From NCBI RefSeq assembly GCF_030013205.1, contig NZ_CP122648.1: a stretch of DNA of 64,000 nucleotides; one strand, given 5' to 3'. The notes beneath the pieces are model-generated. The model searched no databases. It was not told the DNA's origin and was given only the letters and a program-made list of their open reading frames with translations. Both the position numbers and the translations under genes were made by a program. This document shows, piece after piece, positions 25,821-26,647 of this stretch (positions are counted from its first letter, which is position 1; the number at the start of each line of letters is the position of its first letter). Origin of the DNA: Escherichia coli (GTDB lineage: Bacteria; Pseudomonadota; Gammaproteobacteria; Enterobacterales; Enterobacteriaceae).

Positions 25821-26108
25821 TCACTGACTGCAATTTTTCGATCCAGGGTATTTCCTGAATGCCTTACCATTGGGCTGATGTAATCCCATCCCGGCATGTG
25901 CCCGGCTGATGGTTTCGCGCATCTCCCCGAAATTATCCTGCCGTGCTGGTGGGCGTGCTGCCTTGCGGATACATTCCGCGCGACGTTTTGCCGCCTGTTC
26001 CCGTGCCTTGTCATCATTCGCCAGCATGATGACCTCAGCCCACCGCGCCGCCGCTCTCCGGTACAGACCACGCGCTTCCAGTGCTTCCGCTTTGCTGTCG
26101 TGAATCAT
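25821..26108 (-). CDS. PerC-family transcriptional regulator-like protein
   Basis: 95 aa. AEALEARGLYRRAAARWAEVI matches the remembered PerC/Pch signature (..LE.kGLyRRAA.RW..v..). ATGA coupling to the upstream gene. Confidence 0.6.
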   Translation of the reverse strand: MIHDSKAEALEARGLYRRAAARWAEVIMLANDDKAREQAAKRRAECIRKAARPPARQDNFGEMRETISRAHAGMGLHQPNGKAFRKYPGSKNCSQ

Positions 26109-26647
26109 GCGCCTGTTTTCTCCTTTGCTACCCGGCGCTGACGTTTGCGCTTCTCATTCAGCGCCACCAGCCGCGTTTCTGCGTCCTGTTGTTCCTGTGG
26201 TGTCACCTCGCCGCACGGCTGGCCTTTCAGGTCGTAGCGTACCCCACCAGCCATTAAGGCGCGGTAATAGCGCGGACACTGTGCATAAGATGCCAGCGTC
26301 GCACGCAATGCCCCTGGACCGAATGCCAGCCCCCTGACGGCGAGATCCTGCATCAGGTCGTCGAATATCCCCACCTTAAGCGGCTTCGGTGCTTCCCGGC
26401 TGAATAATTCAGGCCACAACTCAGTGAGGCGGTTAATGCGCCTGCGGTTTTTGCGCTGGCGCTTGGTCATATGCCGCCACAGTGTCGCCCCTGTGGGCTT
26501 CTGCTGCGCTTTCTGGTTACCGGGCATCACTTTATGCGCCGATGTGGTTTTATCCTGCTCCTGCGCCGCCTGCGTCGTTTTCTGCGGCGTGCCGTAAATG
26601 CCTTTAGGTTTTCTGTTAATGGTCAGCTTAGTCATGCTTTGCCCCAT
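26105..26647 (-). CDS. ProQ/FinO-domain RNA-binding protein
   Basis: 180 aa. PLKVGIFDDLMQDL...LRATLASYAQCPRYYRALMAGGVRYDLKGQPCGEVTPQEQQDAETRL parallels the ProQ N-terminal FinO domain (PLKIGIFQDL...LRLYTSSWRYL...RVDLDGNPCGEL) from memory. Basic N- and C-terminal tails. The exact start (26647 or 26635) is uncertain. Confidence 0.7.
   Translation of the reverse strand: MGQSMTKLTINRKPKGIYGTPQKTTQAAQEQDKTTSAHKVMPGNQKAQQKPTGATLWRHMTKRQRKNRRRINRLTELWPELFSREAPKPLKVGIFDDLMQDLAVRGLAFGPGALRATLASYAQCPRYYRALMAGGVRYDLKGQPCGEVTPQEQQDAETRLVALNEKRKRQRRVAKEKTGA

Follow-up and report, generated by a model that had tools for sequence, protein, structure and literature searches.

FinO-domain and PerC-family genes of the island

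A 64,000-nucleotide stretch of Escherichia coli DNA (NCBI RefSeq assembly GCF_030013205.1, contig NZ_CP122648.1; hereafter the window) carries on its minus strand two overlapping genes, located on an island that resembles the phage-inducible chromosomal islands (PICIs). The upstream gene encodes a FinO/ProQ-domain protein and the downstream gene a small PerC-family protein. Both are members of known families and their names are already public, as RefSeq labels the genes of the porcine E. coli ETEC4079 chromosome (100% identical) "ProQ/FinO family protein" and "PerC family transcriptional regulator". The pair and its immediate surroundings comprise the following features, where L numbers denote loci other than the window.

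26105 to 26647, minus strand: gene for the FinO/ProQ-domain protein, an open reading frame (ORF) of 180 amino acids from the ATG at 26647 (Pfam, PDB and structural model)
26132 to 26449, minus strand: part encoding the ProQ/FinO domain (residues 67-172), including Y127, R137, G93 and R115
26120 to 26125, minus strand: AAGGAG, Shine-Dalgarno sequence for perC, within the 3' end of the FinO gene and 11 nt before the ATG
26105 to 26108, minus strand: ATGA, in which the stop codon TGA of the FinO gene lies on the start codon ATG of perC
25821 to 26108, minus strand: PerC-family gene of the PICI type, 95 amino acids (Pfam PF06069, phrog_994)
25790 to 25819, minus strand: intrinsic terminator 1, a GGCCGGGA-UUUU-UCCCGGCC stem followed by a U run (folding; also in Citrobacter L010)
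25741 to 25781, minus strand: intrinsic terminator 2, a 12-bp stem AAAGCCCGC...GCGGGCUUU followed by GUUUUU (folding; also in L010)

The ORFs of 180 and 95 amino acids and their ATGA overlap are as described in the initial annotation. The true start of the FinO gene is probably the second ATG, at 26635, which gives a protein of 176 amino acids (MTKLTINRKP...). This start is favoured because it is used by the RefSeq annotation from the Prokaryotic Genome Annotation Pipeline, because 10 of 11 aligned homologues begin at the matching position, and because a GGGG sits 6 nt 5' of this ATG. The stop/start overlap and the Shine-Dalgarno sequence were kept in all six loci examined in which the FinO gene precedes perC: the overlap is ATGA in the window, L010, L011 and L023 and ATGAGTATG (the overlapping ATG plus a second ATG) in L012 and L016, and an AAGGAG-, AAGGGG- or AGGGAG-like motif was present in each. 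Judging from this arrangement, perC is predicted to be translationally coupled to the FinO gene via the overlap. The pair has a G+C content of 58%, compared with 49% in the island as a whole and 33% in the adjoining origin region, which fits cargo that was acquired separately.

The FinO protein matched the Pfam ProQ/FinO profile (PF04352) at profile positions 4-108 of 109 (residues 67-172; E = 6.1e-24; 84.5 bits, cut-off 27), and a sequence search of the PDB matched it to ProQ, FinO, NMB1681 and RocC. An AlphaFold model from 12 homologues showed predicted local distance difference test (pLDDT) values above 90 at residues 60-170 and disorder at residues 1-55. In a Foldseek comparison of the model with the PDB, all 26 matches with E<=1e-3 were FinO-domain structures with target TM-scores of up to 0.84, including RocC bound to a terminator (TM-score 0.84 against RocC). 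The layout is thus a basic disordered N-terminal tail (residues 1-55), a FinO domain (about 60-150) and a long basic C-terminal helix (150-179). Residue counts bore out the lysine/arginine-rich tails of the initial annotation (K+R 10 and D+E 2 in residues 1-60; K+R 8 and D+E 2 in residues 160-180).

In the structure of RocC with a terminator, Tyr87, Arg97 and Gly52, the last in a beta-turn, form a pocket for the 3' nucleotide (PMC9674577). These residues align with Y127, R137 and G93 of the island protein, of which Y127 and R137 also correspond to Y70 and R80 of ProQ, and they are invariant in the clade of its relatives (the FinO clade). Counterparts of ProQ K35, R58, R69, Y70, R80 and D82, whose roles have been described (PMC9674577, PMC7491321), are kept as well. 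Of the helical N-cap motif, the arginine is retained (R115, equivalent to RocC R75 and ProQ R58), and the serine (RocC S70, ProQ S53) is replaced by Gly110, which is invariant in the clade. Pfam, PDB matches, predicted fold and the conserved Tyr/Arg pocket all agree with the FinO domain that had been recognised by eye. The protein is a FinO-type RNA-binding protein with a FinO/FopA-like layout, lacking the C-terminal domain of ProQ. By analogy with its family, it would bind terminator-like RNA ends, that is, a hairpin with a 3' U-tail, via the Tyr127/Arg137 pocket.

Orthology to FinO, ProQ or FopA was rejected, as the NCBIfam FinO and ProQ models gave 64.6 and 58.1 bits, about half of their cut-offs of 136 and 127, and identity to FopA was only 35% over 83 aa. 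In an exhaustive search the clade was compact and enterobacterial, as only 7 representative clusters reached E<=1e-30, the superfamily numbering 2,130, and no close relatives were found among sequenced phages. A more distant relative is encoded by L015 (NZ_CP060068.1) and similar non-mobilizable plasmids of 11-13 kb from E. coli, Citrobacter, Enterobacter and Serratia, which carry a DUF927 replicase, Rop and a 213-aa FinO-family protein similar to that of the island from end to end, N-terminal tail included (32% identity).

The 95-aa protein matched the Pfam PerC profile (PF06069) at positions 1-89 of 90 (E = 2.2e-32; 111.6 bits, cut-off 22.6) and phrog_994 (E = 8e-36). The proposed PerC membership is therefore upheld over the full length, and both families of the pair are matched far above their Pfam cut-offs. 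The invariant N-terminal family motif AE.LE..G.YRRAA.RW is present. Identity is 94% to the copy in the O104:H4 strain HUSEC2011, 51% to PchE of O157 Sakai and 45% to EcCIMP1_025. The model is a small helical bundle with three helices at residues 5-51 (pLDDT 82-89); compared with the PDB it had no significant neighbour and no recognisable DNA-binding fold, the weak matches being hairpins similar to tetratricopeptide repeats. The ratio of nonsynonymous to synonymous substitution rates (dN/dS) was 0.22-0.30 for the FinO gene, tail and domain alike, and 0.12-0.69 for perC; both genes are under purifying selection.

Membership of the family of AraC negative regulators (ANR) was rejected for this protein (NCBIfam ANR_neg_reg, 14.4 bits, cut-off 32, E = 0.024); a weak ANR resemblance was also pointed out by the authors of the EcCIMP1 study (PMC11773190). 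Identity with Rpp was rejected too, RppA and RppC being unrelated proteins of 144-153 aa. A 17-nt repeat between the 3' end of perC and 19790-19806 was regarded as a chance match, since the second copy lies in shared chromosomal flank.

PICIs carrying PerC homologues have been documented (PMC6092414), and PchE is located on OI-51/Sp7 of O157 (PMC3378721). Overexpressed PchE lowers curli and adhesion and increases flagellar expression, in opposition to the group 1 Pch proteins that activate the enterocyte effacement locus (LEE) (PMC7369912). EcCIMP1_025, the PerC-like protein of PICI EcCIMP1, silences LEE1, and the homologues from the EDL933 and CFT073 PICIs had no effect (PMC11773190). LEE activation has been reported for only some PICI PerC homologues (PMC11773190, PMC6092414), so it should not be assumed here. 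The PICI homologues tested so far repress LEE or adhesins or show no effect, and the analogy with LEE activators drawn in the initial annotation probably does not apply to this PerC (PMC11773190, PMC7369912). The PchE and EcCIMP1_025 phenotypes were measured in LEE-positive backgrounds, not in this enterotoxigenic E. coli strain (PMC7369912, PMC11773190).

A variable cargo slot closed by terminators

Among 5,426 complete E. coli genomes, the FinO-clade gene was matched in 1,174 (about 22%), the O104:H4 outbreak strain among them, and the number of copies in a genome reached 9; perC-like DNA was found in 1,175, and 238 had the intact pair. Locus contexts were taken from E. coli genomes and from contigs encoding each homologue, and a broader contig scan gave only E. 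ruysiae and E. albertii. In the contexts examined, the FinO-clade gene always lay directly after the gene for a replicase or single-stranded DNA-binding protein (SSB) and before packaging or capsid genes. This slot occurs in ordinary PICIs, PICIs that form capsids (cf-PICIs) and other capsid-bearing satellites, with three replicase types, and among the sister islands are cf-PICIs whose set of capsid and terminase genes is complete. Its occupants were as follows.

FinO then PerC, overlapping: window, Citrobacter L010, E. ruysiae L011, E. albertii L012, L016 and L023 (O104:H4 HUSEC2011)
PerC then FinO, with an 80-nt gap: L008 and L018
FinO alone: cf-PICI L017
FinO and a frameshifted perC remnant: L002 to L007, the commonest FinO-bearing type
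PerC alone: L021, L022 and O157 Sakai Sp7 (pchE)
Neither gene: L024, whose integrase and AlpA are the same as in the window

Each gene is found without the other in sister islands and their order can invert, so the pair is not obligate; FinO and PerC are frequent but independent occupants of a variable cargo slot. Of the mobile pair proposed in the initial annotation, the location of both genes on a satellite and their adjacency stand, and the notion of a fixed unit does not. L019 and L020 have truncated or frameshifted FinO genes. In L002 to L007 (around 8479-9130) the FinO gene is followed by an overlapping ORF of 138 aa and then by the perC remnant in two frames; no family or PDB match was found for the 138-aa ORF.

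The two strong terminators that had been noted after the pair were confirmed by folding: the tandem hairpins fold at -43.3 kcal/mol (z = -5.2), and none of 200 shuffled sequences was as stable. The L010 copy of terminator 2 differs in and beside the loop. No minus-strand terminator-like site was found between the stop of the replicase gene (rep) and the start of the FinO gene (27114 to 26648), and a consensus scan at its threshold gave no promoter between the two genes. With no terminator from rep to the FinO gene and strong ones after perC, the pair most likely makes up the final cistrons of the early alpA-rep operon. Most islands examined have a terminator at the end of the slot, irrespective of which gene is last: it is tandem in the window and L010 (after perC) and in L018 (after FinO), single in L017, in L021 and after pchE in Sakai, decayed in L011 and L023, and not clear in L012 and L016. 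The terminators are therefore read as the end of the early operon and, on this sequence comparison, look like the early/late boundary of the island and not a part of the pair.

The satellite island and candidate RNA partners

The other features of the island are listed below.

19552 to 32735, no strand: whole island, about 13.2 kb, bounded by a 26-nt direct repeat at 19552-19577 and 32710-32735
31403 to 32644, minus strand: tyrosine integrase with Arm-binding, central and catalytic domains
30697 to 30903, minus strand: AlpA-family regulator/excisionase (Pfam PF05930, E = 4.5e-8)
28526 to 28825, minus strand: DUF4222 gene overlapping the start of rep, in the same position as RgdR (ECs1581) in Sakai PICI Sp7
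27114 to 28529, minus strand: RepA-type helicase/replicase (AAA_25), directly upstream of the origin
26720 to 27110, no strand: origin region, AT-rich (33% G+C), lying between rep and the FinO gene and holding about 12 GTGAGGA/TCCTCAC iterons
20783 to 25619, minus strand: late block after the terminators, with a 57-aa gene, phrog_6216 fragments, a 205-aa gene, a 679-aa protein and a TerS-N-like helix-turn-helix (HTH) gene

The gene order on the minus strand is integrase, AlpA, an Icd-like remnant, DUF4222, RepA helicase, iterons, FinO-PerC, terminators and virion block. The island lies between yejM and yejO, immediately downstream of a tRNA-Pro(GGG) gene at 32854-32930; the satellites of L016, L018 and L024 occupy the same insertion site. 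RgdR, which belongs to the same family as the DUF4222 protein of the window, is a regulator of the type III secretion system and motility, encoded by the O157 island OI-51 (PMC3378721). The iteron-bearing region 26720-27110, which also has longer repeats about 84 nt apart and reaches within about 70 bp of the start codon of the FinO gene, is probably the replication origin of the island.

An integrase, AlpA, a replicase with an iteron origin, a size of 10-15 kb, att repeats and the lack of a full phage gene set were all found, and such a gene set is the published signature of Gram-negative PICIs (PMC6092414). The satellite location given in the initial annotation thus holds, the island being, as judged from genes alone, a PICI-type phage satellite, with putative induction by a helper phage. 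A 12,152-bp circular E. coli "plasmid" (L014, NZ_CP148430.1) is an EcCIMP1-like PICI with integrase, AntA, DUF4222, Icd, a TOPRIM-DUF927 primase and PerC, presumably captured in its excised form; it gives an indirect hint of such mobility for the related island here.

In the late block, the phrog_6216 fragments were annotated as DUF2213 and head-protease/scaffold-like, and the 679-aa protein as transglycosylase/ejection-like. RefSeq calls the gene at 24828-25406 (minus strand) a "NUDIX hydrolase", yet it had no Pfam or NCBIfam match; together with the DUF2213 gene at 24080-24763 (minus strand), it matches the C-terminal and central parts of the 545-residue phrog_6216 (head-maturation-protease-like). 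The label is probably wrong, and the gene may be split. At the distal end of the island, beside the TerS-N-like HTH gene (20783-21310), 4-5 copies of TTGACAC(TTTTTCGCG), 54-137 nt apart, lie at 20549-20782 and may be a pac site or a regulatory binding site. The N-terminal 100 residues or so of the replicase (28200-28529, minus strand) are common, at 44-68% identity, to islands with replicases that are otherwise of distinct families (AAA_25 RepA, DUF927 and D5_N primase), which suggests a shared N-terminal module of island replicases.

The search for an RNA partner of the FinO protein covered the island. An Rfam E-value scan returned tRNA-Pro only and no known small or antisense RNA family. After alpA, within a stretch of 636 nt that has no annotated gene (30061-30696), the plus strand has a promoter-like site at 30561-30589 (TTCACT-17-TATAAT) and a strong terminator at 30638-30665, which would give a candidate RNA of about 75 nt, antisense to the early operon. 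Matches to this element (30561-30672) were found in 403 of the 5,426 E. coli genomes, where hardly any is annotated as a gene; in Citrobacter neither the hexamers nor the hairpin core has changed. The element could be an antisense RNA, or else terminate a plus-strand YlcI/YnfO unit. As it is present whether an island has FinO, PerC alone or neither gene, it was rejected as a FinO-specific ligand and is by co-occurrence a general island feature. A second candidate, an antisense RNA over the 5' end of rep (28315-28502), was dropped, its hairpin and T-run being found only in the closest relatives. The suggestion in the initial annotation that the pair could rewire host networks or control an antisense RNA of the island is thus speculative, the two candidates lending the latter no specific support. 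In the literature searched, FinO/ProQ-like genes of satellites appear in two papers from 2026 and solely as annotations, one on Enterobacter PICIs (PMC13612085) and one on Vibrio episomal satellites, which have a ProQ/FinO-like gene beside parA and repA, presumed to serve plasmid maintenance (PMC13230959). No functional study of such genes was found there.

Role of the pair and comparison with known systems

With somewhat better than even confidence, we lean towards two independent accessory regulators that end the early operon, namely a terminator-binding RNA chaperone and a PchE-like modulator of host transcription. The rep transcript would read through the origin into the FinO gene and perC and end at the tandem terminators, short of the late block, which would be controlled separately. 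The FinO protein may stabilise terminator-like RNAs or aid their pairing, with a ligand from the island, the helper phage or the host. The PerC-like protein would work separately as a small modulator of host transcription, and probably has more in common with PchE and EcCIMP1_025, repressors of adhesin or LEE expression, than with the LEE activators of the PchABC type. The two would then be independent cargo often travelling together and not a two-component machine.

Several points weigh against this picture. The recurrence of the genes as neighbours in both orders, with conserved overlap and Shine-Dalgarno sequence, could mean a functional link. The transcription units come from consensus scans alone, and an internal promoter in the AT-rich origin is possible. 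Neither the Rfam scan nor the two antisense candidates in the island provided an RNA ligand of the FinO protein. The change of the N-cap serine to glycine throughout the clade may mean that RNA binding differs in detail; glycine is able to cap helices. The PerC protein is only 45-51% identical to the tested PICI homologues, and their phenotypes may not transfer.

A different role for the FinO clade, which we hold to be unlikely, is that of a dedicated satellite chaperone that binds a terminator-type 3' end and thereby sets copy number or the early-to-late switch, PerC being a frequent partner in the same circuit. Its target would be in an island or helper-phage transcript, possibly the tandem terminators of the early operon itself. 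If this were true, satellite-encoded FinO control would be a general, so far unstudied layer of satellite-helper biology.

Control of replication, with the FinO protein chaperoning an island antisense RNA that regulates the replicase and PerC as unrelated cargo, also seems doubtful. It would fit the constant position of the FinO gene right after the replicase or SSB gene and beside the origin, and in pCol1B9 fopA is likewise about 4 kb from repZ. Alongside the plasmid cases below, FinO-RepX is a further precedent. The ligand of FopA is the Inc antisense RNA, which acts in repZ control on IncI plasmids (PMC7491321, PMC9977716), PcnR offers a comparable case on IncI2 plasmids (PMC8053102), the full-length relatives with 32% identity are on small DUF927-replicon plasmids, and the Vibrio episomal satellites place their ProQ/FinO-like gene beside parA and repA (PMC13230959). 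The same FinO clade, however, accompanies three replicase types (AAA_25, DUF927 and D5_N), and L021 and L024 have the same replicase without a FinO gene. Moreover, the sole antisense candidate at the 5' end of rep is not conserved, the Rfam scan of the island gave no known antisense RNA, and the island protein is not a FopA orthologue (35% over 83 aa). We likewise give little credence to an obligate two-gene life-cycle module in which PerC activates the late operon and the FinO protein acts on the tandem terminators or the late leader as a timing switch. Single genes occur in close islands that still have late modules, L024 has neither gene, the commonest FinO-bearing island type has a decayed perC, the L016 island ends right after perC with no late module, perC of EcCIMP1 is at the far end of its island, and the PerC model has no recognisable DNA-binding fold. 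These observations stand against the occurrence of the genes as neighbours in two different orders, the conserved ATGA overlap and Shine-Dalgarno sequence, the labelling of PHROG relatives of PerC as transcriptional activators, and the position of the pair exactly at the early/late boundary, where the terminators would be ideal ligands of the FinO type (PMC9674577).

It is quite improbable, in our judgement, that the pair is cargo for helper-phage interference or anti-defence, directed at RNAs or regulators of the helper or of competitors, such as phage antisense RNAs. The slot varies in the manner of satellites' accessory/defence hotspots, genes for interference and defence are known from PICI accessory regions (PMC13612085, PMC6739421), and ProQ binds phage- and island-derived RNAs (PMC9977716). 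No PADLOC profile, however, matched either protein or the neighbours, neither protein is related to Rpp, the 138-aa ORF of other islands has no PDB relative, and no helper phage is known for the island. Finally, the frameshifts in perC of L002 to L007 and the truncated or frameshifted FinO genes of L019 and L020 are what decaying or functionless passengers kept by hitch-hiking would show. For the window this can hardly be credited, because both ORFs are intact over the full profile length, dN/dS is well below 1 at divergences up to dS of about 1, and the pocket residues are invariant in the FinO clade.

Among bacterial RNA chaperones, FinO-domain proteins form a small class under active study, and the known members on mobile elements, FinO, FopA and PcnR, each control conjugation or plasmid copy number via one antisense RNA. 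A compact FinO clade at the replication/packaging boundary makes a sensible starting point in seeking RNA-based control of satellite replication or of helper exploitation, and PerC-type regulators on such islands can alter host adhesion and virulence gene expression. The outcome of our analysis is a correct annotation of two known and already public families, with the mechanism as a proposal only.

The island as a whole resembles EcCICFT073, EcCIEDL933 and EcCIMP1 in its int, alpA, DUF4222, replicase, iteron origin and packaging/virion genes, in its size of about 13 kb, in its one-directional genes and in its tRNA-adjacent att site. It differs from them in a late block with protease/scaffold-like, transglycosylase and TerS-like HTH genes, without Rpp and without a full capsid set.

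The FinO protein shares the FinO domain and the Tyr/Arg 3'-end pocket with FinO of F-like plasmids and FopA/YafB of the IncI plasmid pCol1B9, as well as the basic disordered N-terminal extension, the lack of a ProQ-type C-terminal domain and the location on a mobile element near a replicon; its fold matches FinO (1dvo). Identity to these proteins is about 30-35%, however, and they are encoded by conjugative plasmids rather than a phage satellite. Unlike in their systems, no FinP- or Inc-like antisense RNA was found in the island, and the N-cap serine is replaced by glycine. ProQ of E. coli and Salmonella, RocC of Legionella and NMB1681 of Neisseria have the same domain, predicted fold and terminator-binding surface, whereas the island-borne protein lacks the Tudor-like C-terminal domain of ProQ and the long C-terminal extension of RocC.

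For the PerC protein, the Pfam family and the N-terminal motif are common to the LEE1 activators PerC of the enteropathogenic E. coli plasmid pEAF and PchA/B/C of enterohemorrhagic E. coli lambdoid prophages. Identity to plasmid-borne PerC-family copies is about 45-48%, and their genetic context is different. EcCIMP1_025 is PICI-borne like the window PerC, its gene lying at the far end of EcCIMP1. Neither EcCIMP1_025 nor PchE (ECs_1588) has a FinO-domain neighbour, and both resemble the window PerC in length and N-terminal helices. On Sakai Sp7/OI-51 (PICI EcCIEDL933), pchE occupies the same slot, in the order replicase, SSB, pchE, terminator and capsid genes.

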